Assembly (NCBI GenBank): GCA_913020725.1
Contig: CAJWCD010000033.1
Span: 1-28,119 of the forward strand
Length of the DNA: 28,119 bases
Reading direction: 5' to 3'
Source of the DNA: an uncultured Pseudomonadota bacterium
Lineage (GTDB): Bacteria; SAR324; NAC60-12
Shown in pieces: positions 3,525-27,101 of this stretch; the first letter of the stretch is position 1, and every line of letters begins with the position of its first letter. The notes beneath the pieces were generated by a model. That model did no database searches, was not told the origin of the DNA, and was given only the letters and a program-made list of their open reading frames with translations. The translations under genes were made by a program, and so were the position numbers.

Positions 3525-5036
3525 ATGCCATTTGCCAAACCCGTCCGTCAGGAACTTGCCCGCATCTGCGGCAAGGAATGGGTCAAGGATGATGCGATCA
3601 CGCTCTACGCCTACCGCAGCGACGGCCTGACGCTCTACACCGCCCCGCCGCTGGGGGTGGTTTATCCGGGCAGCACCGGGGAACTGGTGCAGGTCGTCAA
3701 GCTCTTCCACCGCGAGCAAATCAGCTTCCTGCCGCGTGGCGCGGGCACGGGGCTGTCCGGAGGGGCGGTTCCTTGTGAAGGCAGCGTGATCATCGAAATG
3801 GCGCGCTTCAAGGAAATCCACGAGGTGGATTTCGTCAACCGCACGATCACGGTTGGTCCCGGAGTGGTCAACCTGCGCATCTCCGAACACGTCAAACCGC
3901 ACGGCTACCACTTCGTTCCGGACCCTTCTTCTCAGAAAGCCTGCACGATCGGTGGCAATGTCTCGGAGAATTCTGGCGGGCCACACACGCTCAAGTACGG
4001 CGTGACGGTGAACCATGTCCTCGGACTGGAATTGGTGCTTCCGGACGGAGAGTTGGTGGAATTCGGTGGCAAGCACCACAACCTGCCGGGACCGGACATG
4101 CTGGGCTTGCTGATCGGCTCGGAAGGCACCTTTGGGATCATCACCAAAATCGTCTGCCGCTTGACCCCGAACCCGGAGAAGGCAGTCACGCTGCTGGGAG
4201 TGTTTGACTCGGTGCGCGGGGCGTGCGACGCGGTGTCCGGCATCATCCGCAACGGCACGATTCCGGCGGCGATGGAACTGATTGACAAGACGGTGATCCG
4301 GGCGGTTGAGGCTACGCTCAAGCCCGGATTTCCACAGGACGCCGAGGCGGTGCTGATCGTGGAACTCGAAGACCTCGAAGATGGCATTGGGGAAGACGCG
4401 GAACTCGTTGAGCGGCTGCTGCGGGAGAACGGAGCGCAGGATGTGAAACGCGCCAAGGACGATGCCGAACGCACCCGCATCTGGCGCGCCCGCAAGGAAA
4501 GTTTTGGGGCCATCGGGCAGCTTTCGCCAAGCTACTACGTCCAAGATGGTGTGATTCCGCGCAGCAAGCTCCCGGAAGTCGTTGATCAGATTGCGGCCAT
4601 CGGCCAGAAATACAACCTCACCGTCGCCAACGTCTTCCACGCCGGAGACGGCAATCTGCACCCGCTGATCCTCTTCGACTACGAAGACGCCGAGCAGGTC
4701 GAGAACACGCACAAGGTCGGCGAAGAGATTTTGAAGGTCTGCATAGGCTACGGCGGAACGCTTTCCGGAGAACACGGCATCGGTCTGGAAAAGCGCAAAC
4801 TGATGGGCGAACTCTACTCGGAGGCTGACTTGGAGAACATGCAGAACCTGCGGGCCTTCTTCAATCCGGACGGACGACTCAACCCTGCGAAGATCTTCCC
4901 CACGCCGAGTCGCTGTGCCGAAACGAAAGGAGTGTCGTCGCAAATCCCCCCCGGCTCCCCTTTGGTGGGAAAGGACGAATCGGATGGGCTGGATCACGCC
5001 AAGCTAGTCGCACACAAGTCCGGCATTGCCGTATGA
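3525..5036 (+). CDS. glcD: Glycolate oxidase FAD-linked subunit GlcD
   Basis: PRGAGTGLSGGA, PDPSSQKACTIGGN, HTLKYGVT, GSEGTFG, HAGDGNLHP, SGEHGIG, LNPAKIFP; first gene of a D-E-F triad. Confidence 0.92.
   Translation: MPFAKPVRQELARICGKEWVKDDAITLYAYRSDGLTLYTAPPLGVVYPGSTGELVQVVKLFHREQISFLPRGAGTGLSGGAVPCEGSVIIEMARFKEIHEVDFVNRTITVGPGVVNLRISEHVKPHGYHFVPDPSSQKACTIGGNVSENSGGPHTLKYGVTVNHVLGLELVLPDGELVEFGGKHHNLPGPDMLGLLIGSEGTFGIITKIVCRLTPNPEKAVTLLGVFDSVRGACDAVSGIIRNGTIPAAMELIDKTVIRAVEATLKPGFPQDAEAVLIVELEDLEDGIGEDAELVERLLRENGAQDVKRAKDDAERTRIWRARKESFGAIGQLSPSYYVQDGVIPRSKLPEVVDQIAAIGQKYNLTVANVFHAGDGNLHPLILFDYEDAEQVENTHKVGEEILKVCIGYGGTLSGEHGIGLEKRKLMGELYSEADLENMQNLRAFFNPDGRLNPAKIFPTPSRCAETKGVSSQIPPGSPLVGKDESDGLDHAKLVAHKSGIAV
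4942..4974. repeat. Degenerate C/G-rich dispersed repeat inside the glcD 3' end
   Basis: AAATCCCCCCCGGCTCCCCTTTGGTGGGAAAGG shares its first 13 nt and CCCCTTT with the copy at 5151. Confidence 0.55.
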
Positions 5037-6277
5037 AACATGTGTTTCTGCCAGAAACCATCGAGGATGCTCAAGCTTGGCTTCGGAAACGCCTTGCCGC
5101 CCAACAACCGTTTGCGGTGCGTGGTGCGAATTCCCGCTTCCATCCGCAGGAAATCCCCCCCGGTCCCCCTTTTCCAAAGGGGGGAGATGAGGTCGCCACT
5201 CCGGAAATTCTCTCGACTGCAAAGCTGACGCGCACCAACTTCTTTGATCCGGATGACATGGTGGTCGGGGTCGAGGCGGGCATGACGGTGGCTGCGTTGC
5301 AGGCGTTGCTCGCCGAACAGGGGATGGTGCTGCCCGTCAATCCGTGGTTTGCAGAATCCACCATCGGTGCGGCGTTTGCCTGCAACGACAACGGCCCGAA
5401 CCGTCTCAACATGGGCGGCTTCCGGGATTGTGTCATCGGCATCGAGTACCTCAACGGCAACGGCGAGCGCGTCCACGCTGGAGGCAAAGTCGTCAAGAAC
5501 GTCTCCGGATATGACCTCTGTCGCATGCAGATCGGCAGCCTCGGTGGGCTGGGCGTGATCACGGCGCTTAACTTCAAGGTGATACCGCAGCCGGTCGCCC
5601 CGCACGGCCTCTACGGACGTTTTCCGGACAGCACCTGGCAGCAGCGGGTTGCAGAATTGCACTCGGCCCGAATTCCAGTGGATTGGATTCAGGCGTTTGC
5701 TCCTGCCGAATCCGGCAGCATGGACTGGCTGCTCGGTATTGGTTTTTCTGGAAACGCTGCTCGGCAGCAGCGCATCGAACGCGAAATCCAAACAATCTGC
5801 AGAGGCGATTTGCAGCTCGTAGCCGCTGGCGAAACGCCTCTGGGTTTGTCCTTTCTTCCCGGAACCGACCGTTTCACGGGTTGGGTTCCGAAGCTGCGAC
5901 AGCTTTGGAAACTCCCTGCGCAGCACCTGCACCTGATGACCCTGCTGACGACGAGTGCAGCACTACATCCCACGCACTTGGAGTCCATTCGCAGCGAGCA
6001 AACCCGGATGGTTGTACATCCCATCGGCGCGGATTTGCACTGCTTCCTCGACAGCGAAGACGCAACCACGCAGCGCGAGTTCATCGCATCGTTGCAACCC
6101 ATGCTGCGCCAGATGCAAGCCAAGCTGGTGCTGGGTAACGCGGCATCCGCAATCGGCTACTCCGATCTCGGTGAGTTCGCCCAGCCTCCGGGGTATGCGC
6201 TGGTGCAACGGCTCAAGCGTCACCTTGACCCCGCAGGCGTGTTCCACGCACCATTTTACGAGCAGCCATCAACATGA
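5033..6277 (+). CDS. glcE: Glycolate oxidase FAD-binding subunit GlcE-like
   Basis: FAD_binding_4 features (VEAGMT, TIGA, GGKVVKNVSGYDL, GSLGGLGVIT, C-terminal LKRHLDPAGVF); ATGA overlaps with both glcD and glcF. Confidence 0.85.
   Translation: MKHVFLPETIEDAQAWLRKRLAAQQPFAVRGANSRFHPQEIPPGPPFPKGGDEVATPEILSTAKLTRTNFFDPDDMVVGVEAGMTVAALQALLAEQGMVLPVNPWFAESTIGAAFACNDNGPNRLNMGGFRDCVIGIEYLNGNGERVHAGGKVVKNVSGYDLCRMQIGSLGGLGVITALNFKVIPQPVAPHGLYGRFPDSTWQQRVAELHSARIPVDWIQAFAPAESGSMDWLLGIGFSGNAARQQRIEREIQTICRGDLQLVAAGETPLGLSFLPGTDRFTGWVPKLRQLWKLPAQHLHLMTLLTTSAALHPTHLESIRSEQTRMVVHPIGADLHCFLDSEDATTQREFIASLQPMLRQMQAKLVLGNAASAIGYSDLGEFAQPPGYALVQRLKRHLDPAGVFHAPFYEQPST
5151..5185. repeat. C/G-rich hairpin repeat in-frame in glcE
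   Basis: AAATCCCCCCCGGTCCCCCTTTTCCAAAGGGGGGA; stem CCCCCTTT/AAAGGGGG; encodes EIPPGPPFPKGG. Confidence 0.65.
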
Positions 6278-7662
6278 ATTTTCGCGATCTCTCCTTCTCG
6301 GAAGTCACCAGTGAGCGGTTGACTTTCGGTTCCGAAAACAAAACCTCGCAGCAACTGTTCCGGGAAGCAGAATTCGACAACATCCTCAAATGCGTCCACT
6401 GTGGATTGTGCCTCGACAGTTGCCCAACTTACCGTGAACTTGGCGACGAGAAAGACTCACCACGCGGACGACTCTACCTGATGCGCGGGTTGTGGGAAGG
6501 GGAACTGGACCTGACTCCGGAAGTCACCGCACCCCTCAGTCGTTGTCTCGACTGCCGTGCCTGCGAAACCGCGTGCCCATCTGGAGTACCCTACGGAGAA
6601 TTGCTGGAAAAAGCGCGAGGCGTGATTCACGAAACCCAACCGCAAAGCCTGAAGGAACGGATGCTCAGGACATTGCTGCTGAAGGGACTGTTCCACTCGA
6701 CCTTCCTGCTTACGCTGGCCAGCAAGTTGCTGAAACTCTACGCCGCCAGCGGCTTGCCTCAACTGATCACCAACACTGCATTCGGCAAGCTGTTGCCGTC
6801 GCAGTTTGTGTTCCAGCAGCACCTGCTTCCGGACTGCTCCGGGCAGTCCTTCAAGCAGAAGTACGCCGATCAGGAACTCGGTTCCACGCACGGAGCCGCA
6901 AGCCTTGGGCGAGTCGGCCTGTTCTCCGGGTGCATCATGGATGTCTCGGAGGCGGCGATCCACGAAGCGACGCTGAAGCTGCTGCGGGGCATCGGCTACA
7001 CGGTGGTGGTTCCCGGCAAGCAAGGCTGTTGTGGAGCACTCCACGTTCACAGCGGCGACCGCAAGACTGCCCGTGGTTTGGCCCTCAATAATCTGGATGC
7101 GTTTGAGGAGCGCGAGTTTGAGGCAATCATCACCAACGCCGCCGGATGCAGTGCCCAACTCCGGGAGTTCCATCACCTGTTTCCGCAAAACCATTCTGGC
7201 CATTCCAGGAATTGGAACGCCATCGAAGGCCGGATTGTGGACATCCTTGAATTCCTCTCCCGGCATCTGGAACCAATCCAGCGGCTGAACTGGCGAACCG
7301 ATGAAAATGTGGTGCTGTATGATGCACCTTGCCACCTGATGCATGCCCAGCAGGTGGATGATCACCCGCGAGCACTGGTCAACAGCCTGCCGGGGGTAAC
7401 GCTGGTTCCGCTCACCGAGTCGAATTGGTGCTGTGGCTCTGCGGGAATCTACAACTTGGTGCACCCCGACTTGTCCAGTGCCGTGCTGGAGCGTAAAATG
7501 GCTTCGGTGCGGGAAACCTTGCAAGCCAACCCGCAGGCGACCACGCTGGTGACGGGCAATCCGGGCTGTCTTTACCAAATCCGTGCGGGCATCCGTGCTG
7601 CTGGGCTGCCGTTGCGAGTGATCCATCCGGCAGTGTACCTTGCCGAACGACTGAGGGGATGA
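6274..7662 (+). CDS. glcF: Glycolate oxidase iron-sulfur subunit GlcF
   Basis: Two 4Fe-4S motifs (CVHCGLCLDSCP, CLDCRACETACP), SPRGR, and two CCG domains (GCCGAL, WCCGSAGIYN, GNPGC). Confidence 0.92.
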   Translation: MNFRDLSFSEVTSERLTFGSENKTSQQLFREAEFDNILKCVHCGLCLDSCPTYRELGDEKDSPRGRLYLMRGLWEGELDLTPEVTAPLSRCLDCRACETACPSGVPYGELLEKARGVIHETQPQSLKERMLRTLLLKGLFHSTFLLTLASKLLKLYAASGLPQLITNTAFGKLLPSQFVFQQHLLPDCSGQSFKQKYADQELGSTHGAASLGRVGLFSGCIMDVSEAAIHEATLKLLRGIGYTVVVPGKQGCCGALHVHSGDRKTARGLALNNLDAFEEREFEAIITNAAGCSAQLREFHHLFPQNHSGHSRNWNAIEGRIVDILEFLSRHLEPIQRLNWRTDENVVLYDAPCHLMHAQQVDDHPRALVNSLPGVTLVPLTESNWCCGSAGIYNLVHPDLSSAVLERKMASVRETLQANPQATTLVTGNPGCLYQIRAGIRAAGLPLRVIHPAVYLAERLRG

Positions 7663-7923
7663 ATGCCGGAAATCAGTCGTTTTCTGGGAATGGTCATCCA
7701 GATGTACTTCAATGAGCATAATCCGCCACATTTTCATGTCCAGTACAACGAGTAGCAAGCTGCTATTCTGATTGAGAATCTTGGTGTGATGGAAGGGGAA
7801 CTCCCCGCAAAAGCCCTGAGCTTGGTTGTAGAGTGGGGACAGGAACACCAAGAGGAACTGCTTGCCAATTGGAACAGCCTACGAAAATCGGGGCAGTTCC
7901 ATAAAATACAACCCCTCGCCTGA
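7663..7923 (+). pseudogene. DUF4160-family (DhiT-like putative toxin) gene interrupted by an in-frame TAG
   Basis: Hand translation MPEISRFLGMVIQMYFNEHNPPHFHVQYNE*QAAILIENLGVMEGELPAKALSLVVEWGQEHQEELLANWNSLRKSGQFHKIQPLA. DUF4160 signatures (MPEISRF, EHNPPHFH, EW...H..EL..NW, KI.PL) lie on both sides of TAG 7753-7755. ATG directly follows the glcF stop. Confidence 0.88.
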
Positions 7924-7930
7924 GAATTAG

Positions 7931-8242
7931 ATGATCTCGATCAAAACCGCTGAACATTTGAGTGATTATCGAGTCCGCCTCAAGTTCAGCAACAATCTGG
8001 TGGGCGTGGCAGACTTAGAGGACACAATCACCAACGATCAGCGGTCGATGTTTCACGAACTCAGCAATCCCGTCAAATTTCAGCAATTCCAAACGGATGG
8101 CTATACGATATGCTGGAAAAACGGGCTGGATTTGGCTCCAGAGTATTTGTTTTTCCTAGCTTTTCGCAACGATCCAACTTGGCAACAACAGTTTTTCGAT
8201 TGGGGTTATCTGAAGCTGGAAGCCACGGAAGCAGCCGCATGA
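7931..8242 (+). CDS. DUF2442-family protein (DhiA-like putative antitoxin)
   Basis: 'Y.VRLKFSN..G..DL', 'F..L..P..F', 'TICWKNGLDLAPEYL'; usual partner directly downstream of DUF4160. Confidence 0.85.
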   Translation: MISIKTAEHLSDYRVRLKFSNNLVGVADLEDTITNDQRSMFHELSNPVKFQQFQTDGYTICWKNGLDLAPEYLFFLAFRNDPTWQQQFFDWGYLKLEATEAAA

Positions 8243-9504
8243 CCTCGCCCACTGCATTCCTGCATTCCCTCTTTGAAACGGCGGTCGCCAGTACGCAGCC
8301 CGCACAGTGTGTGCCGCCTAATCTTCCGGAACCACCCAAGGGTCGCACGCTGGTGATTGGTGCCGGGAAGGCGTCCGCAGCGATGGCACGTGCCGTGGAG
8401 CAGCACTGGCCCGGAGACCTTGAAGGGCTGGTGCTGACGCGCTACGGCCACGCCGTTCCCTGTGAGCGCATCGAGATCGTGGAGGCGGCTCATCCGGTTC
8501 CGGACGAAGCGGGACGGCAGGCCGCAGAGCGGATGTTGGAGCTGGTGCAAGGACTGGCTGCGGACGATCTGGTGCTGTGTCTGATCTCCGGAGGCGGTTC
8601 GGCGTTGCTCACCTTACCTGCGCCGGGGTTGACGTTGGAGGACAAGCAGTCAGTCAATCGGGAACTGCTGCGCTCCGGAGCCACAATCCACGAGATGAAC
8701 TGCGTCCGCAAGCATCTCTCCACGATCAAGGGTGGACGCCTCGCTGCTGCTTGCCATCCGGCGCGGGTACTGACGCTGGCAATTTCGGATGTTCCCGGAG
8801 ACGAGCTTTCCGTGATTGCCTCCGGGCCGACCGTTCCGGATCCATCGACCTTTGCCGAAGCACAGGACGTGCTGGAGAAGTACACGATCACCGTGCCGGA
8901 GGCTGTTCGTACTCATTTGGAACAGGCCGAGGACGAAACGCCAAAACCCGGCGATCTGCGTCTCGTCAACACCGAGACCAAACTGATCGCCACCCCGCAG
9001 CAAATGCTGGAAAGTGTTGCCGAGCAAGTCCGGAAGGCGGGCCTCACGCCGTTGATTCTCAGCGACCGCATCGAGGGCGAAACCCGTGATGTAGCAAAAG
9101 TTCATGCGGCCATCGCCCGTCAAATCCAGACGCATCAGCAGCCTGTCGCGCCTCCGGCGGTGATCCTCTCCGGAGGTGAAACCACGGTGACGGTGCGCGG
9201 CAAGGGCAAGGGCGGGCGCAACTCGGAATTCGCGCTGGCCTTGCTGGACGACTTGCGCGGGCTACCCGGAATTGCTGCGCTTGCCTGCGACACCGATGGC
9301 ATTGACGGTTCCGAGGACAACGCGGGCGCCATTCTCACTCCGGAAACTTTTTCACAGGCGGAAACCCTTGACCTCTCGCCTGCCGAATTTCTGAGCCGCA
9401 ACGACGCCTATTCGTTTTTTCAACAGGTGAACGGACTGGTGGTTTCTGGTCCAAGTCTGACGAACGTCAACGACTTGCGGGCGATTTTGGTGGAGCCAGC
9501 TTAA
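8239..9504 (+). CDS. Glycerate 2-kinase / TtuD-like hydroxypyruvate reductase (DUF4147 + MOFRL)
   Basis: VIGAGKASAAMA, EAAHPVPD, LISGGGSALL, VRKHLSTIKGG, ISDVPGD, IASGPT, SGGETTV, GGRNSE, DTDGIDG, TNVND. Start MTSP at 8239 (ATGA overlap with the DUF2442 stop). Confidence 0.92.
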   Translation: MTSPTAFLHSLFETAVASTQPAQCVPPNLPEPPKGRTLVIGAGKASAAMARAVEQHWPGDLEGLVLTRYGHAVPCERIEIVEAAHPVPDEAGRQAAERMLELVQGLAADDLVLCLISGGGSALLTLPAPGLTLEDKQSVNRELLRSGATIHEMNCVRKHLSTIKGGRLAAACHPARVLTLAISDVPGDELSVIASGPTVPDPSTFAEAQDVLEKYTITVPEAVRTHLEQAEDETPKPGDLRLVNTETKLIATPQQMLESVAEQVRKAGLTPLILSDRIEGETRDVAKVHAAIARQIQTHQQPVAPPAVILSGGETTVTVRGKGKGGRNSEFALALLDDLRGLPGIAALACDTDGIDGSEDNAGAILTPETFSQAETLDLSPAEFLSRNDAYSFFQQVNGLVVSGPSLTNVNDLRAILVEPA

Positions 9505-12198: not shown

Positions 12199-12510
12199 AT
12201 GCTGTTGCATCATCGGCTCCTGCGTGCGCTTGGCCTGCTGTTCGCCATGGGGTTAGGCGCCTGCCAATCCTCTCCGGAACCCAAAAAACTTCTTTATCCC
12301 ACTCCTGCCGAACAGGGCGTGAGCTACTACTGCCGCCGCCCCTTTTACGAACCCTACAACCTCAACCAACGTTGGACCAACATGCGTCCGGCCCTGCTGG
12401 TTGTCTCCGCAGTGCAGGCGGTGGTTTACTTTGAAAACGACGAAGCACAGGTGCTGCCGCTCGATTTTGACGACACCATCCCGTCCGGATCGTACCGCTG
12501 TCCTTCCTGA
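12199..12510 (+). CDS. Hypothetical lipoprotein
   Basis: Signal peptide with lipobox LGA-C (MLLHHRLLRALGLLFAMGLGAC); starts 1 nt after the upstream stop. Confidence 0.7.
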   Translation: MLLHHRLLRALGLLFAMGLGACQSSPEPKKLLYPTPAEQGVSYYCRRPFYEPYNLNQRWTNMRPALLVVSAVQAVVYFENDEAQVLPLDFDDTIPSGSYRCPS

Positions 12511-12658: not shown

Positions 12659-14242
12659 TCAGTGGTGATCCTCGTCCAGCATCTGCTCAAACTTCCGAGC
12701 GCGGATTTTCTTCACAATGAAGTCAATGTTTTTGATGGTTTTGCGCAGTTCCTCGTCTTTCTCTAGGCTCCGCTTGACTTCAGTCATGCTCTGGATGATC
12801 ACTCCGATCACAAGGTTGAGGATGACCAGCCCGCTGATGACGATGAAGGAGATGAAGTAGAACACGGAGGCCACCGGCAGTTTGGACGGAGAGGTGCACT
12901 GCTCCGCAGCATCTTTGTAACCGTAGGTGTCGCATCCGTACATCTGGATGTACATCAGGTCGGTCCAATCCTCGAAGGTGGCTGCCCTGAACAGGGAGAT
13001 CATGCTGATGGGCAGGTTGCCAAAGTGGATGGGGTCGTTCTTGGAGAAGGTGGTGGTTCCAATGACTCCGTAGATGTAGATCAGCAGCAGCAGCAGGATG
13101 CCGACAAATCCAATGGGTTTGGTGCTTTGGAACAAGGAGATGACGATGATCCGCAGTTGCGGGATTCTGCGGAAGATCCGCGTGAAGCGGAGCAACCTCA
13201 CCACTCTCAGCACGAAAGGGTAGGTTCCGAAGGGCAGGAAGGAGAGGAACACCAGCAGGGAGTCGAAAACGTTCCACCCGTTGGAGAGGAACACCAGAGG
13301 TCGGTTCCACTTGGGAATGAGGCGGATGAGAATTTCGACAAGGAAAATGTACTTGATGCCAAGATCGAGGACGTGAAAGGTCTGGGCATACTCCCGGACA
13401 AGTTCCTCGCTGGTTTCCAATCCGACCACGATCCCGGCCAGAATGATCATCAGGTTGATGAAGTTGGAGAACAGCGGATGCTGCTCAATCTCCATCAAGC
13501 ATTTGCTCAGCCGGAACCCGGAACTCTCAAAGCTGAGACCGGACTCGACTCCAAGGTTCTCCAGCAACAGCTCATAGACGATCTTTTCTTCATCGGTGAA
13601 CTCGTTATCTGAAAAAATGACCTCCTCCACCATCGTCCGGATGCTGATTTTCTGGTCATGGTCGATTTGGTTGAGCTTCCTCAGTTCTTCCCCCACCTTC
13701 TGGATTTGGGATTCCAGATCGAGATCCTTCAGGTTTTGGTAGGCTTCGTTGTAGTAGATGCGGATGTCTGGTCCCATGTACTTGATCCAGATTTCCGCAA
13801 ACTCATCGATGCTTGCAAAATCAGAGCTGGAGACGTAGTTGAGCACATGGAGGTACTCGAAGAGTTCCAGAGTCGGATTGATGGCATAGACGTTGACTTG
13901 GAGGTAGCGTTTGGCAAGATCATAGAACTTGCGCTCGGTCGAAAGCACCTCAGCATCGGCAAAGATGATCTCTTCAATCATCAGCAGGATTTCCTTTTTG
14001 ACGAACTCATCTTCTTCCTGCAAGCGGGAAAAGCTCTGTTTGGTGCGGTTGACCTTTTCGTCGTCGGCTAGGTCATCCAAGACACGAGCCGCCTCAGTTT
14101 CCCAAGCTGCGAACTGACTCCCCAGATGCGTCTTCAGGATGCTGTTGATGCGCTGTTCGGACTCTTCATCAGAAAGCGAGATCACGTTCAGCAACTTCAG
14201 GCAGATCACCAAATCCAGCGGATTCTGCAAATTTTTGATCAT
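12659..14242 (-). CDS. 6-TM voltage-gated Na+/Ca2+ channel (BacNav/AnclNav-like) with two N-terminal TerB-like domains
   Basis: C-terminal ~280 aa: S1-S3 (GWNVFD), S4 LRVVRLLRFTRIFRR, S5, pore FGNL...SLFRAATFEDWTDLMY, S6 NLVIGVI. N-terminal ~235 aa: two similar acidic helical repeats ending EEIIFADAEVLSTERKFY and EEVIFSDNEFTDEEKIVY. Confidence 0.9.
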   Translation of the reverse strand: MIKNLQNPLDLVICLKLLNVISLSDEESEQRINSILKTHLGSQFAAWETEAARVLDDLADDEKVNRTKQSFSRLQEEDEFVKKEILLMIEEIIFADAEVLSTERKFYDLAKRYLQVNVYAINPTLELFEYLHVLNYVSSSDFASIDEFAEIWIKYMGPDIRIYYNEAYQNLKDLDLESQIQKVGEELRKLNQIDHDQKISIRTMVEEVIFSDNEFTDEEKIVYELLLENLGVESGLSFESSGFRLSKCLMEIEQHPLFSNFINLMIILAGIVVGLETSEELVREYAQTFHVLDLGIKYIFLVEILIRLIPKWNRPLVFLSNGWNVFDSLLVFLSFLPFGTYPFVLRVVRLLRFTRIFRRIPQLRIIVISLFQSTKPIGFVGILLLLLIYIYGVIGTTTFSKNDPIHFGNLPISMISLFRAATFEDWTDLMYIQMYGCDTYGYKDAAEQCTSPSKLPVASVFYFISFIVISGLVILNLVIGVIIQSMTEVKRSLEKDEELRKTIKNIDFIVKKIRARKFEQMLDEDHH

Positions 14243-14578
14243 CGGTGCTGTTCAGAATTGTGGTGCATCTAGAAGGGAAACATCTTGCGCCAACCCTACC
14301 CGAAACTCCCGTCTAGCGCAACGGGAATTGTTGAAGTTTGCTAGGCAGGACAACTAGGGCGATCTTTTCCGGAGACGCTCTTGTTGCGGTTGAACTTGCG
14401 CTTGAGCGTCCTTGTACTCAAAGCTGCAAGACAACTGAGAAACGGTTCTCAGAATCAACCCTTGTTCAGAACATCTTATAGTCAAAGCTACTGGTTCTAG
14501 GACACATTTGGACTGGGATGCAAACAGCCAATTCATTAATATTCAACAATATTTATTAGATGTCACCGCTAGTTCATA

Positions 14579-14716
14579 GTGTTCGATTTTAATTTGAAAT
14601 TTACTCTGGAAGAACTCTTTGGCAAGAAAGTAGATCTTCTTCAAGAAGGTGCGATTGACAACCCCTATGTCAAAGCATCCTTAGAAAAAGATCGGGTGTC
14701 CGTCTATGTTGCATAA
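14579..14716 (+). pseudogene. C-terminal remnant of a minimal nucleotidyltransferase (MNT) antitoxin
   Basis: FDFNLKFTLEELFGKKVDLLQEGAIDNPYVKASLEKDRVSVYVA* fits the MNT C-terminal 'LE.LFG..VDL....I.NPY' motif. The catalytic N-terminus (GS..D.D) is missing; in-frame TAG at 14570-14572. AT-rich. Confidence 0.75.
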
Positions 14717-14798
14717 TACGAAGGCGTACCGGTATGATATTCTGAAAGCCTGTGATGCGATCATTGACTACAGAAGCGGAAGCTCATCTCAAAGGTGA
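14706..14798 (+). pseudogene. N-terminal remnant of a HEPN/DUF86 toxin
   Basis: MLHNTKAYRYDILKACDAIIDYRSG.. resembles the DUF86 start ('..AYL.DIL.A...I..F..G'), overlaps the MNT end as in such pairs, and stops after 30 aa. Confidence 0.6.
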
Positions 14799-14822
14799 GT
14801 GTCAGAAATTATTACAATAGTG

Positions 14823-18388: not shown

Positions 18389-19021
18389 TCAAGAGGGGGG
18401 TGTTTTTTCGTAGACCGTATACACCTTCTCCTTGATCTCCTGATGCATCTTCTGCGCGTCGCGGATCACCGTGTTGCAGGCTTCCTTGAACTGCTCTATC
18501 GTCTCCGGATTGTCATTGGCGCTCTTGAAATTCTTGTACTGCTCGTAAAGTTGCCCCACGTCCTTGGACATGTTCTTCTTGAGGACGATGGCGACGGGAA
18601 GACTCTGCTTGAGTTCTTCCTTGCTGCCGCTGCTGAGGACTTGCTCTCCGGCAAGCTTGAGGGAATTCCTCTTTGCGGCCACGGCTTGATATTGTTGCTG
18701 GGTCTCTTCCGGAACCGACTGTACTGCGTCAGGGACACTGGTCTCCGGAGCTGCTGCCGATGCGAATTTTCCTTCAGTGGCAGGGGCTTCGTCGGGGGCA
18801 GCTCCTGCGTCTGCCGTTGCCTCTTCTGTTTCTGGGGCCGCAGCATCGGTGGCAGGGGCTTCGTCGGGGGCAGCTCCTGCGTCTGCCGTTGCCTCTTCTG
18901 TTTCTGGGGCCGCAGCATCGTTGGAGTTCTCGGCAGCAACGGCCTCGGCGGCTTCGGCCATTTCCTCTGTTACGTCTGCTTCGGTCTCTTCAGTAGAGAT
19001 ATCGGGGGTTTCATCGGCCAT
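18389..19021 (-). CDS. Acidic Ala/Glu/Pro-rich low-complexity protein with helical C-terminal domain
   Basis: Start MADETPD at 19021 with SD GAGGAG; roughly 100-aa disordered-looking N-terminal region containing a 24-aa duplication; Lys/Glu-rich helical C-terminus. Confidence 0.8.
   Translation of the reverse strand: MADETPDISTEETEADVTEEMAEAAEAVAAENSNDAAAPETEEATADAGAAPDEAPATDAAAPETEEATADAGAAPDEAPATEGKFASAAAPETSVPDAVQSVPEETQQQYQAVAAKRNSLKLAGEQVLSSGSKEELKQSLPVAIVLKKNMSKDVGQLYEQYKNFKSANDNPETIEQFKEACNTVIRDAQKMHQEIKEKVYTVYEKTPPS
18777..18920. repeat. Perfect 2 x 72-bp intragenic tandem duplication
   Basis: 18777-18848 is identical to 18849-18920; encodes DAAAPETEEATADAGAAPDEAPAT twice. Confidence 0.95.
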
Positions 19022-19143
19022 GGTGTCTCCTCGGATTCCGGTGGCTTGCTCCAAGCGAGCGGCTTGAGTTCACTAATGGATTACTGTAAATTAACAGGCA
19101 CTTCAAGCCATTTGACGTTTGAGCCTAAAGAATTGACCACCGA

Positions 19144-22487: not shown

Positions 22488-22511
22488 GAATAAGACGAAG
22501 ATTTGAATCCC

Positions 22512-22967
22512 ATGCTGAAGCTTTCAAAAAAGACCGATTACGCAATCATCCTACTCACACACCTTGGCGCAACGCACGCGCCGGTGAGTGCGCAGGAACT
22601 GTCCGCGCACTACCGCTTGCCGCATCCGATGACGGCCAACATTCTCAAGCAGTTGGTCACGGTTGGGATAACAGAATCAATGCGGGGGCAGCACGGCGGC
22701 TATGTGCTGGCACGACCAGCGGCGAGCATCACCCTTGTTGAGATCATTCAAGTCATGGACGGCCCCTTCACTCTGGTCGATTGCGTCCACGAGGAAGGGT
22801 GCTGTAAGGTGTCGCAACACTGCCCCACGCGAGGGCCGCTCACTGCCTTGCATCGTCGCATGGAGCAATTCATGGAGGAAACCACCCTCGCGTCTATCAT
22901 CGCGGAATCACAACTGAACCTCACACCCCAGCCATCCCAGGATCATGGAATTACCCATCTATCTTGA
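22512..22967 (+). CDS. Rrf2-family Fe-S cluster assembly regulator
   Basis: [21 protein letters not shown]...IT..EII...DG, Cys cluster [15 protein letters not shown]; heads the isc operon. Confidence 0.9.
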
Positions 22968-24159
22968 CTACAACGCTACTACGCCGACTGACCCACGGGT
23001 GGTGGAGGCGATGCTGCCGTATTTCACGGAAATCTATGGTAACGCTGCCAGCCGCAACCATTCCTTTGGCTGGACTGCTGAAAAAGCTGTTGCTAGCGCA
23101 CGGGACATGCTCGGTAGCCTGATTGGCACGAGCAGCAAGGAGATTGTCTTCACGAGTGGAGCTACGGAATCGAATAACATCGCTATCCTTGGCGCTGCGG
23201 ATTTCCACAAGGACAAGGGACGCCACATCATCTCCAGCCCCATTGAACACAAGGCAGTGATTGACCCCTATCACTACTTGGAACAGCAGGGCTACGAGGT
23301 CACTTTCCTCGATGTTGATCAGCACGGTTGCATCAGTCTGGAGCAGTTGGAGCAAACGATTCGTCCGGACACGATCCTCGTTTCGCTGATGGGCGGGAAC
23401 AACGAGATCGGCACCGTCAATCCGCTGGAGGAAATCGGACGCATCACCCGCAAACACGGGGTGCTGTTCCACACGGATGCGACTCAGGCGTATGGCAAGA
23501 TTCCGCTTGATGTCGAGCGCATGAACATTGATCTGCTCTCCATGAGTGCGCACAAGATGTACGGTCCCAAAGGCATCGGTGCCCTGTACGTCCGCCGCAA
23601 GAAGCCGAGGGTGCGGCTTTCGCCGATCGTCTTCGGAGGGGGACACGAGCGGGGCATGCGCTCCGGAACGCTCAACGTCACCGGCATTGTCGGCTTCGGC
23701 AAGGCGGCGGAACTCTGTGCGGAGGAAATGGCGTCCGAGGCCGAACGCCTGATCGGCTTGCGGCAGCGGCTCTACGAAAAACTCACGACGGAACTCGATT
23801 ATGTGTTCCTCAACGGCCACCCGACCGACCGCCTACCCAACAACCTCAACCTCAGTTTCGGCTACGTTGAAGGCGAGAGCTTGATCATGGGCATCGGCGA
23901 CATCGCGGTTTCGTCCGGATCGGCCTGCACCTCCGCCAGCCTTGAGCCGTCTTACGTCTTGCGCTCGTTGGGCGTGGGTGACGATTTGGCGCATTCCTCC
24001 ATCCGCTTCGGCTTCGGACGCTTCACCACGGTGGAGGAAATTGACTACACCGCCGAGCAGGTTTCCAGTGCCGTCAAGCGGCTCCGGGAGATGTCCCCGC
24101 TTTACGAGATGGTGCTGGAGGGCATTGATCTTTCAACCGTGCAGTGGGCCTCCCACTGA
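22945..24159 (+). CDS. iscS: Cysteine desulfurase IscS
   Basis: [32 protein letters not shown] (PLP Lys), [27 protein letters not shown]. Confidence 0.97.
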
Positions 24160-24186
24160 TTCATAACCTATTTCTGAGAAGACCAA

Positions 24187-24576
24187 ATGGCATACAGCGA
24201 AAAAGTCGTGGACCACTACAGTGCTCCCCGCAACGTGGGCAGTTTCATGAAGAATGATGACGCCGTGGGTACCGGACTTGTCGGTGCTCCGGAATGCGGT
24301 GATGTGATGAAGCTTCAGATCAAGGTGGAGAACAACCAGATCGTGGATGCGAAATTCAAGACCTTTGGATGTGGCAGTGCTATCGCATCTTCTTCCCTCG
24401 CCACCGAGTGGGTGAAGGGCAAGACACTGGACGAGGCCATGACCATCAGGAACACGGAGATTGTCGAGGAACTTTCCTTGCCGCCCGTGAAAATTCACTG
24501 CTCTGTGCTGGCCGAGGATGCGATCAAAGCCGCCATCGCCGACTACAAATCCCGGAGCGCAGCCTCCGCTGACTGA
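24187..24576 (+). CDS. iscU: Fe-S cluster scaffold IscU
   Basis: MAYSEKVVDHY, GAPECGDVMKLQI, FKTFGCGSAIASSS, LPPVKIHCS. Confidence 0.97.
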   Translation: MAYSEKVVDHYSAPRNVGSFMKNDDAVGTGLVGAPECGDVMKLQIKVENNQIVDAKFKTFGCGSAIASSSLATEWVKGKTLDEAMTIRNTEIVEELSLPPVKIHCSVLAEDAIKAAIADYKSRSAASAD

Positions 24577-24590
24577 GTTGGCATTCTTCC

Positions 24591-25199
24591 TTGCCTGACC
24601 CATCTGTCGCTTGCGAGCAGTGCCGCGCCCCGCTGATTTCGCTCCTGTACTGCTTCGGATGCGACGCCCTTCAGTTTCCGTCCGGAGAGGTCACCCCTCA
24701 CGAGGCCCTTGGCATCCCGGAATCCTTTCAGGTGGACCTTGATTTGCTGGAAGGGCGTTACCAGCAACTCACGTTCGAACTGCATCCGGATTTCTACGCC
24801 AACGCCAGCAAGCGCGAACAGCGGCAGAGCGAACTCGCCTCAGCCGTGCTCAATCGGGCCTACAACACCCTCTGGAATCCCGTCGCCCGCGCCAATGACC
24901 TGCTACCCCGATTGGCGCAGGGCACGGTATTGGACGAACGGCAACTGCCAGCGGGCTTCTTGATGGAAATGTTTGAAGTGCAAGAATCCCTTGACGACTT
25001 GCTGGATTCTGGAACTCCGGACGAAATCGTCCAAACTCGTACAGATCTAGCAGAACGCCACGCATCCTTGATTTCCGGACTTGCCCTGCACTTTGCAGAA
25101 GCGGCAGCCACAGCCCCTCCGTCCACACTCCAAACTCTGCAAACCGACCTCAACGCAGAACGCTACCTGCACCGCTTGCTGGAACGCTTTCCAGTTTGA
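24591..25199 (+). CDS. hscB: Co-chaperone HscB (J-domain with N-terminal CxxC..CxxC)
   Basis: CEQC...CFGC, LHPDFY J-domain motif, LNRAYNTL.NP..RA, FLMEMFE; TTG start. Confidence 0.9.
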   Translation: MPDPSVACEQCRAPLISLLYCFGCDALQFPSGEVTPHEALGIPESFQVDLDLLEGRYQQLTFELHPDFYANASKREQRQSELASAVLNRAYNTLWNPVARANDLLPRLAQGTVLDERQLPAGFLMEMFEVQESLDDLLDSGTPDEIVQTRTDLAERHASLISGLALHFAEAAATAPPSTLQTLQTDLNAERYLHRLLERFPV

Positions 25200-25286
25200 G
25201 TTGGTGAGTTTGGTGAGTCTGCTGCCTACTGACTCGTGCCTTTTAAACTTTGGAACTTTGCCCCTTTGGAACTCTGAAACTTGAAG

Positions 25287-27101
25287 ATGGAACGCATCAT
25301 CGGTATTGACCTTGGCACCACTAACAGCTTGGCGGCAACGGTGATTGAAGACGGTCCGGAAGTGGTGGCTCCGTCTGGAGAAAACCCCATCACCCCTTCG
25401 GTGCTCACCCGCAGCTCCGGAAACTGGATCGTGGGAGAAGCTGCCGTTGCACAACGCTTGACGGCTCCGGAGCAGACCGTTTATTCCGTCAAGCGACTGA
25501 TGGGGCGCGATGTTGAGGAACTGGCGGAAGAAATCAAGGAGTTGCCGTATGCCGTGATTCCAGCGCAGCGCAAGCTCGTGAAGGTCCGCATCGGCACTGA
25601 GGAATTCACGCCCCAAGAACTCTCAGCGGAGATTCTCCGGGAGGTGAAGCGTCGGGCGGAAACCGCACTGGATGAGACAGTCTCAAAAGCTGTGATCACC
25701 GTTCCTGCCTACTTCGACGATGCCCAGCGCCAAGCCACCCGCGATGCCGCGAAACTCGCCGGATTGGAAGTGGTACGCATTCTCAACGAGCCGACCGCCG
25801 CCGCCATCGCCTACGGATTGGACGAGCGCAAGGACGGGTATGTGGCTGTGTACGATCTTGGTGGCGGCACCTTTGACCTCTCGCTGCTCAAGCTTTCCGG
25901 AAAGCTCTTCAAGGTCATTGCCACGCATGGCGACACACGGCTGGGCGGGGATGACTTCGACCGCGAGTTGATGACTCTGCTCCGCGAACGGCTGCTGGCC
26001 GAACATCCGGAAGTTACATTTGAGCGTGCAGAAACCCAGCAGCGTCTGCGGAAAACGGCGGAGGAGATCAAGATTCGGCTCAGTGGCTCTCCAGAAACCG
26101 CATACACCCTTGAACTTCCAGAATGTGGAATCATGCCGCAGGGCTTGGTGACGCAAGCGGAGTTTGAGGAACGCATTGCTCCTTTGATTGAGCGGACGCT
26201 GGCAAGCTGCCGGAAGGCACTCCGCGCTGCCGGATTGACCGCAGAGCAGATGGATGAGGTTGTCTTGGTGGGTGGCTCCACCGTGGTTCCGGGAGTCCGC
26301 AAAGCAGTGGAGCGCTTTTTCGGACGTAAGCCGCATGTTGCCATTGATCCGTACAAGGTGGTGGCCATCGGAGCCGGGATTCAGGGACACCTGCTCGCCG
26401 GGGGCCGACGCGATTTTCTGTTGCTGGACGTCATCCCGCTTGCGTTGGGGATTGAGACGCTAGGCGGTACCTTCAGCAAGCTGATCACCGCGAACACGAC
26501 AATTCCGGCAGAGGTGGCCGAAATGTTCACCACCAACGTGGACAACCAAACCGCCATTGACGTCAACATCTATCAGGGCGAGCGCGAACTCGTGGAGGAT
26601 TGCCGCAACCTCGGACGTTTCAAGCTCCGGGGCATCCCGCCAATGCCAGCGGGATTACCGCTGGTGGAAGTCACGTTCCGCGTTGATGCGAACGGCCTGC
26701 TCATCGTTTCCGCCAAGGAGCAGCGCAGCGGCACCGTAGCCGAAATCGAGGTGATCCCCTCGCACGGACTCACCCAGTCCGAAATCGACCACATCCTAGA
26801 GGAGTCCTTTGACCACGCGATCAGCGATTTCAACACCCGTCAGCTCATCGAATTTGGGCAGACGGCCGCACGCATGTTCCGGGGGATCGAGCAGTGCTGG
26901 ACTGTTGCCGAAGCAACGCTGTCCACGGAGGAGCGTCAGGAACTCCGGACTCAAATGGACGTGGTTCGCAGTTCGATGCAGGGAGGTGACGCCGCAGCTC
27001 TCAAGCGGCAGATTGACGCACTAGGGGAACTCACGCGCCCACTCGCGGACACGGCAATGGGTCGAGCAGTGCTAGAGGAATTGCAAATATCGGCGGGGTG
27101 A
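25287..27101 (+). CDS. hscA: Hsp70-family chaperone HscA
   Basis: [55 protein letters not shown]; follows hscB. Start ATG 25287 or TTG 25281. Confidence 0.9.

Follow-up and report, generated by a model that had tools for sequence, protein, structure and literature searches.

The window analysed here, a 28,119-nucleotide stretch of DNA from an uncultured SAR324 bacterium, contains on its minus strand an open reading frame (12659..14242) whose 527-amino acid translation, protein P0001, reads as two TerB-like domains followed by a six-transmembrane (6TM) channel domain. This gene raises the question whether such a fusion is genuine and, if so, what the N-terminal pair is and what it would do for the channel.

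Layout of the gene and occurrence of the fusion

A preliminary description of the locus proposed a six-transmembrane channel with an arginine-rich S4 segment and quoted two motifs shared by the repeats ahead of it. Both repeat motifs are found in the translation, the S4 sequence LRVVRLLRFTRIFRR corresponds to residues 345-359, and Pfam Ion_trans covers residues 255-491 (E 3.6e-40); in a hydropathy analysis, hydrophobic windows were confined to the part after residue 255. The channel consists of a voltage-sensor domain S1-S4 (aa 255-360; 13163..13480, minus strand as for all features of this gene) with conserved S4 basic and acidic residues, a pore domain S5-P-S6 (aa 373-487; 12782..13126) recognized by Pfam, phmmer and Foldseek, and a cytoplasmic C-terminal helix (aa 488-527; 12662..12781) with conserved T502, D507, V510 and R514. 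The N-region comprises the TerB-like domains N1 (aa 7-117; 13892..14224) and N2 (aa 121-232; 13547..13882) and is connected to S1 by a variable linker and pre-S1 helix (aa 233-254; 13481..13546). The model of the full-length protein has a pTM of 0.45, with pLDDT below 50 at residues 237-243 of the linker; a model of N1 and N2 together is confident as one unit (pLDDT 88.7, pTM 0.80). P0001 belongs to a cluster of 78 members at 90% identity, and database names for its family are only 'ion transporter' or 'voltage-gated sodium channel'.

The concern that the fusion might be an assembly chimera was tested, and the fusion proved genuine. N-region patterns picked out 72 metagenome loci. At 60 of these, a complete N-region is joined in frame to the channel; five are cut at the 5' end, three are interrupted and four have no channel match. 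A search with residues 1-240 of P0001 returned 42 proteins with 41-100% identity, most of which contain the channel domain, and 37 clusters, formed at 90% identity and holding as many as 403 members, share this architecture at a length of 524-543 aa. Of 61 related genomes, nine (the window's own genome included) have an intact full-length match and two more have it in pieces; just 9-46 residues precede the channel at 67 more distant genome loci (L034-L100). Strong matches to the N-region profile were obtained in 13 of 88 genomes of the phylum, all from four genera of the SAR324 family to which the window belongs (13 of its 45 genomes), and near relatives that carry a name are SAR324 or 'Deltaproteobacteria'. 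Two short contigs sit in genomes labelled Nitrospina and Marinimicrobia. The second of these is likely misbinned, since a neighbouring gene on it has a counterpart with 77% identity in a family-f1 genome, in a comparison within the SAR324 phylum only.

A search of the repeat profile against 1.84 billion representatives gave 23 matches, 21 of which score as family members or fragments (five were read directly); the N-region is found almost only in the fused family. The match P0064 was rejected as a coiled-coil repeat, and P0065, in which the tail of an M48 peptidase weakly matches TerB (E 6e-4), is at most suggestive. P0015, which joins the N-region to TrkH, and P0083 switch abruptly to unrelated sequence and are likely single-record chimeras. 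In P0072 and P0082 the N-region likewise turns abruptly into unrelated sequence, and these are also likely assembly chimeras.

Mean pairwise identity among 30 homologs is 0.60 in N1, 0.76 in N2, 0.39 in the linker, 0.69 in the sensor, 0.74 in the pore and 0.58 in the tail, so that the linker before S1 is the least conserved segment of the protein. Median dN/dS, taken as regional dN over whole-gene dS in 31 non-independent pairs of 21 sequences, is 0.033 for N2, 0.093 for the pore, 0.099 for the C-tail, 0.133 for the voltage sensor and 0.141 for N1. The fusion is under strong purifying selection, and N2 is its most constrained region, more so than the pore.

The surroundings of the gene are not conserved: no common neighbour gene was seen among the listed loci, where neighbours differ between lineages, and neither a ter operon nor Shango partner genes lie beside the channel gene in these loci, PADLOC also giving no match. 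In the window, a 103-aa lipoprotein-like ORF without Pfam, NCBIfam or PADLOC match (12199-12510, plus strand) converges on the channel gene, and an acidic Ala/Glu-rich 221-aa ORF (18389-19054, minus strand) includes a segment of about 24 residues that is duplicated exactly in tandem. Judged by eye from the translations, the plus strand likely encodes glycolate oxidase glcDEF and glycerate kinase (3525-9504) and an iscR-iscS-iscU-hscB-hscA iron-sulfur assembly cluster (22503-27101). Four RNA runs cover pieces of the channel gene at a depth of 2-6 and cover intergenic DNA as well, with none of the listed pieces spanning the junction between N-region and channel; promoter and terminator scans gave results at chance level. 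The AT-richer intergenic stretch upstream of the gene (14243-14822) is a place where contigs from the RNA runs have loose ends, which suggests strain variation.

Relationship of the N-terminal repeats to TerB

The two N-terminal domains are internally similar, as had been proposed: N1 (residues 7-117) and N2 (residues 122-232) are identical at 34 of 111 positions (31%), and their Smith-Waterman score is 117 compared to 31.7 ± 5.7 for shuffled sequences, none of 2000 of which scored as high. Their assignment as TerB-like was borne out by profile comparison, reverse HMM search and structure, at a level below the Pfam cut-off. When the repeat alignment was compared by HHalign with 29 TerB domains from the SAR324 phylum, the result was 95.4% (E 1.7e-8, 97 columns), with controls of at most 0.73% for 30 column shuffles and 0.18% for the reversed alignment; for the two sub-alignments the match was limited to the second half, at 88% and 83%. 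A HMM of the same 29 domains scored all 30 of 30 repeats at 6.5-38.2 bits, above each of 30 reversed repeats (at most 5.7 bits), and found the window ORF at E 6.6e-6 among 29,914 ORFs of its own genome, with no reversed decoy at E ≤1. When the HMM was built from 15 family-f1 TerB domains alone, the window ORF was found at a mere E 0.35. The N-region profile in turn matches a strong TerB domain at E 1.4e-4.

In a structural comparison of the N-region model with VIA-align, in which Z scores below about 13 can arise by chance for helical bundles, 2H5N was the best match (Z 10.9, and 11.2 in a second comparison; rmsd 3.0, 110 aligned), the next match having Z 5.4. We take 2H5N (PG1108) to be a member of the TerB-like class. 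The annotated TerB structure 2OU3 (Npun_F6341) reached just Z 4.9, level with unrelated helical proteins. Foldseek gave no match for the N-region model at E ≤0.001, a hmmsearch of PDB sequences with the repeat profile gave 0 matches at E ≤10, and TerB/DjlA clusters in the ESM Atlas (0.81 and 0.86) served as leads only. Pfam TerB (PF05099) has no match in P0001 and weak matches in four of 30 repeats (best E 0.0014; 16.7 and 15.6 bits versus a cut-off of 24.4), and Pfam, NCBIfam and PADLOC assign no family to the N-region. The N-region belongs to the wider TerB-like superfamily and not to PF05099 proper. It shares the helical fold and the second aD-x6-E motif with TerB-like domains (PF05099, 2H5N, 2OU3 and the middle domain of DjlA), but differs from these in its scores below the Pfam cut-off, in a first motif that is lost or shortened and in the absence of a ter operon near the gene.

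Canonical TerB domains contain two aD-x6-E motifs each. Of these acidic motifs, which the preliminary description had cited for TerB-like domains, the second is kept in N1 (D96-x6-E103, 13934..13957; D96 in 36 and E103 in 37 of 37 full-length homologs) and in N2 (D212-x6-E219, 13586..13609; both residues 37/37), but N1 has lost the first motif, and in N2 this motif is shorter by one residue (D141-x5-E147, 13802..13822). The shortened motif is kept only in the clade with Asp at position 4 of the selectivity filter (Asp4; D in 27/28 and E147 in 28/28), E147 being found in 0/9 homologs with Gly at this position (Gly4). 'Very acidic' is an apt description of N2 (26 D/E versus 9 K/R) and less so of N1 (23 versus 15). 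Net charge ranges from -13 to -19 for N2 among the 28 Asp4 homologs and from -3 to +6 (neutral to basic) for N1 among the nine Gly4 homologs; acidity of the N-region is not family-wide. Anantharaman reportedly proposed, in 2012, metal or ligand binding by TerB. Because the D-x6-E motif is near-universal across TerB domains, its conservation here is no proof of metal binding, and the motif may be structural. The motif W152-x-K-Y-M-G-P-D159 of N2 (13766..13789; W, K, M, G, P and D in 37/37) is invariant in the family yet no general feature of TerB, which suggests that this patch is an interface and a candidate docking surface.

The closest sequence relatives of the repeats are SAR324 TerB-FecR (HHalign 95.2%, 109 columns) and a stand-alone tandem pair of the own genome (E 3.8e-5). 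The latter is a 266-aa protein (L216:3336-4133, G000:C61), the nearest repeat relative in that genome, and its gene converges on a MotA/ExbB-like gene. The SAR324 phylum is rich in TerB domains, with up to 26 matches per genome, and several are part of transport proteins. A K+ channel-RCK-Sel1-TerB protein is present at full length in 26 of the 45 family genomes and a bestrophin-Sel1-TerB protein in three of the 45, the window's genus having the Sel1-TerB tail on bestrophin instead; MFS-TerB is encoded by three ORFs of one genome. Examples of the first are the GYG K+ channels of about 850 aa with RCK, Sel1 and TerB at L230:1786-4341 and L231:625-3153, and in genome G022 such a gene has a plain bestrophin gene as its head-to-head neighbour. 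The bestrophin-Sel1-TerB gene L217:2935-4641 (G000:C93:5934-7640) is located directly behind a CASTOR/POLLUX-like RCK channel gene (L217:874-2931). Further TerB fusions, at L232, L233, L234, L235, L218 and L173, involve PilZ, FecR, a DUF2225-like region and MFS transporters, one of which has three TerB stretches. The K+ channel and bestrophin proteins, which are uncharacterised, resemble P0001 in that an ion channel of this family of organisms has TerB on its cytoplasmic side, but they carry a single C-terminal TerB rather than a tandem N-terminal pair. As HHalign gives no match between the repeat profile and the one TerB sequence of the K+ channel that was compared (0.3%), TerB was likely recruited independently to the K+ channel and to the Nav-type channel.

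Channel domain and its selectivity filter

The top Foldseek matches of the channel domain are NavAb structures (27-32% identity), and phmmer also matched it to solved structures. The basic S4 positions R346, R349, R352 and R/K355 are present in 37/37 full-length homologs, and so, almost throughout, are acidic residues of the sensor, including those of S2/S3 (E303 37/37, D327 36/37, E276 36/37); these basic and counter-charge residues presumably correspond to positions of NavAb. The preliminary description had chosen NaChBac, NavAb and NavMs for comparison. These channels, like NavRh and NavCt, have the same channel fold as P0001, but according to the portions of the literature available to us they are about 230-300 aa long, have TLESW filters and lack an N-terminal domain. 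The filter of P0001 fits the AnclNav class (NavPp and CavMr) instead, and the AnclNav trait, a TxExW filter that has either additional acidic residues or Gly4, is present in the family.

The filter TFEDWTD (aa 422-428; 12959..12979) differs from TLEDWTD of NavPp at position 2 only, which is Phe in P0001 and Leu in NavPp. NavPp (Plesiocystis pacifica) and CavMr (Meiothermus ruber) also share with P0001 the single 6-TM domain, and Gly4 homologs with TFEGWTD share the key glycine of CavMr. Unlike these two channels, the fused family has a tandem TerB N-region of 235 aa, a different C-tail and both filter types on one fused scaffold, in a comparison that did not extend to the full NavPp and CavMr sequences. 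According to the sections available to us, NavPp is Na+-preferring (PCa/PNa 0.308) and blocked by outside Ca2+ (Shimomura 2020; bioRxiv 10.1101/783647, PMC7041947), and Gly at filter position 4 is key to Ca2+ selectivity in CavMr and in NavPp-D4G (Shimomura 2020, PMC7041947). The same sections report that CavMr given the NavPp filter retains a PCa/PNa of 13.8 (bioRxiv 10.1101/783647), so that selectivity is imperfectly predicted from the filter alone. Based on sequence, the NavPp-like filter of P0001 is likely Na+-preferring and Ca2+-blocked.

The 37 full-length homologs have the filters TFEDWTD (21), TFEGWTD (7), TFDDWSY (4; P0016, P0023, P0024 and P0028), TFEDWSD (3), SFEGWSD (1) and AFEGWSD (1), corresponding to Asp at position 4 in 28 and Gly in nine. 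The Gly4 homologs form one subclade in the tree and, since Gly4 confers Ca2+ selectivity in known channels, are predicted to be Ca2+ channels. One metagenome contig encodes an Asp4 and a Gly4 paralogue (L155 and L167) about 8 kb apart. C437 and C449 (12896..12934), both present in 37/37, are predicted to form an extracellular disulfide, which we consider likely; this MYGC..YGY..C loop after the filter is common to the fused family and its unfused kin. The C-tail is conserved in the fused family, and the unfused kin have different, leucine-zipper-like tails.

Fused channels form one clade, with support of 100 for 21 rows in a quick tree and of 100/99 for 7 rows in a careful tree. The careful tree, built without NavPp and CavMr sequences, joins this clade to TLEDWTD channels from Myxococcota and other groups with support of 100/100. 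Among the best 120 of 299 matches, the nearest unfused kin are TLEDWTD channels of about 300 aa and 39-49% identity, those with names belonging to Myxococcota, Leptospira, Bacteroidota and Chloroflexota; no TerB annotation was found among these 120 (proteins of at least 289 aa). P0085, P0086, P0087, P0094 and P0115 are two-repeat channels, three of them with EF-hands and apparently eukaryotic, that are 29-43% identical to the channel domain. Their Cys loop is the same, their filters are of the xEDWT type, and they fall together with the bacterial TLEDWTD clade. A sister relationship of the fused clade to eukaryotic two-repeat channels had support of 86 in the quick tree, but the careful tree (26 rows) did not resolve it. 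In genome G009 (L012:1-2421), an unfused channel whose filter, TLEGWAD, resembles that of CavMr comes directly after a CASTOR-like RCK ORF.

Possible roles of the TerB pair

Channels of the BacNav type are tetramers with a cytoplasmic N-terminus, in which depolarisation drives the movement of S4. Cytoplasmic modules that tune tetrameric channels include the RCK gating rings of MthK and BK, the T1 domain of Kv channels and the PAS domain of EAG channels; RCK rings pull on the inner helix, and T1 and PAS precede S1. The TerB pair of P0001 precedes S1 like T1 and PAS and unlike RCK rings, and its fold is unrelated to all three. By analogy, the single protein formed by the TerB-like pair and the six-helix channel domain with its NavPp-like filter would likely be a tetrameric, voltage-gated, Na+-preferring and Ca2+-blockable cation channel. 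The TerB pair, predicted to be cytoplasmic, would hang on a loose linker to S1. N2 would use the invariant WxKYMGPD patch to bind the C-terminal helical bundle, probably, or otherwise the inner face of the sensor, and N1 would be a more variable outer module. In the weakest step, a divalent ion or small molecule bound at or near the D-x6-E motifs may shift voltage dependence or inactivation. We give an even chance to this reading, in which a cytoplasmic TerB pair docks on the inner face of a tetrameric Na+-preferring channel and tunes its gating in response to a candidate ligand. TerB has been described as a domain of 'unknown function' in the available part of one report (10.1101/2024.08.29.610257) and as a candidate ligand-binding domain and possible ligand sensor in another (PMC7824862). 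A broader version seems unlikely to us: TerB domains would be intracellular ligand sensors that were independently joined to Nav/Cav-type, K+ and bestrophin channels, here providing a calmodulin-like feedback by divalent ions, and the Gly4 paralogues would be native Ca2+ channels controlled in this way.

The TerB pair could instead be a structural or scaffolding module and no ligand sensor, acting in assembly, stability, localisation or as a dock for a partner such as a stand-alone TerB protein. This is a serious if doubtful possibility: conservation is highest in a surface patch peculiar to the family and not in the canonical motif, the genome has about ten ORFs with TerB domains, and E. coli TerB is, in the part of the source available, membrane-bound in a complex with TerC (PMC11994780), but there are unfused kin, about 300 aa long, that do without a domain of this kind, and both D-x6-E motifs are retained in 36-37 of 37 homologs. 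The preliminary description raised the possibility of a gating ring of eight TerB modules regulated by Ca2+, metal or a partner; such a ring, binding Ca2+ or metal beneath the pore, we regard as improbable. It would fit the charge of N2 in the 28 Asp4 homologs, whose subunits have three acidic motifs each, and the confident modelling of N1 and N2 as one unit. The pair is joined, however, to S1 by the least conserved segment and not to S6 like RCK gating rings, and in the Gly4 clade N1 is neutral or basic and two of the four motifs are absent. With acidity that is not family-wide, a TerB motif lost and a variable linker to S1, the metal-gated ring is unsupported, and docking on the inner face of the channel is likelier.

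Very improbable is a one-gene anti-phage or stress effector, in which TerB would sense infection and the channel would depolarise the cell. TerB-like domains are part of the Shango defence system according to the accessible part of its description (PMC10250203), and presence in 13 of 45 family genomes is patchy; on the other hand, PADLOC had no match for three of three family queries, the neighbours that vary by lineage look metabolic or housekeeping, and S4 and filter are intact. Single chimera-like records such as P0015 and P0083 do join the N-region to unrelated proteins, but an assembly chimera or neutral passenger domain has practically no probability left for P0001, being refuted by the layout common to the 37 clusters, the intact genome and metagenome loci and the strong purifying selection.

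The preliminary description knew of no characterised example of this architecture, and the literature searched, which did not include subscription papers, likewise contained no description of a fusion of TerB to a voltage-gated channel or of a SAR324 voltage-gated channel. Both parts are of known kinds, and the combination of a TerB pair with a Nav-type channel appears to be undescribed. As far as their available descriptions go, the characterised bacterial Nav/Cav channels compared here are bare six-helix proteins, to which the P0001 family adds a strongly conserved, predicted cytoplasmic module, and its common scaffold comes with filters of both the Na+ and the Ca2+ type. TerB domains are widespread, and having them fused to a channel could give an electrical read-out of what TerB senses. 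The family also suggests that an uncultivated marine lineage uses regulated electrical or Ca2+ signalling.
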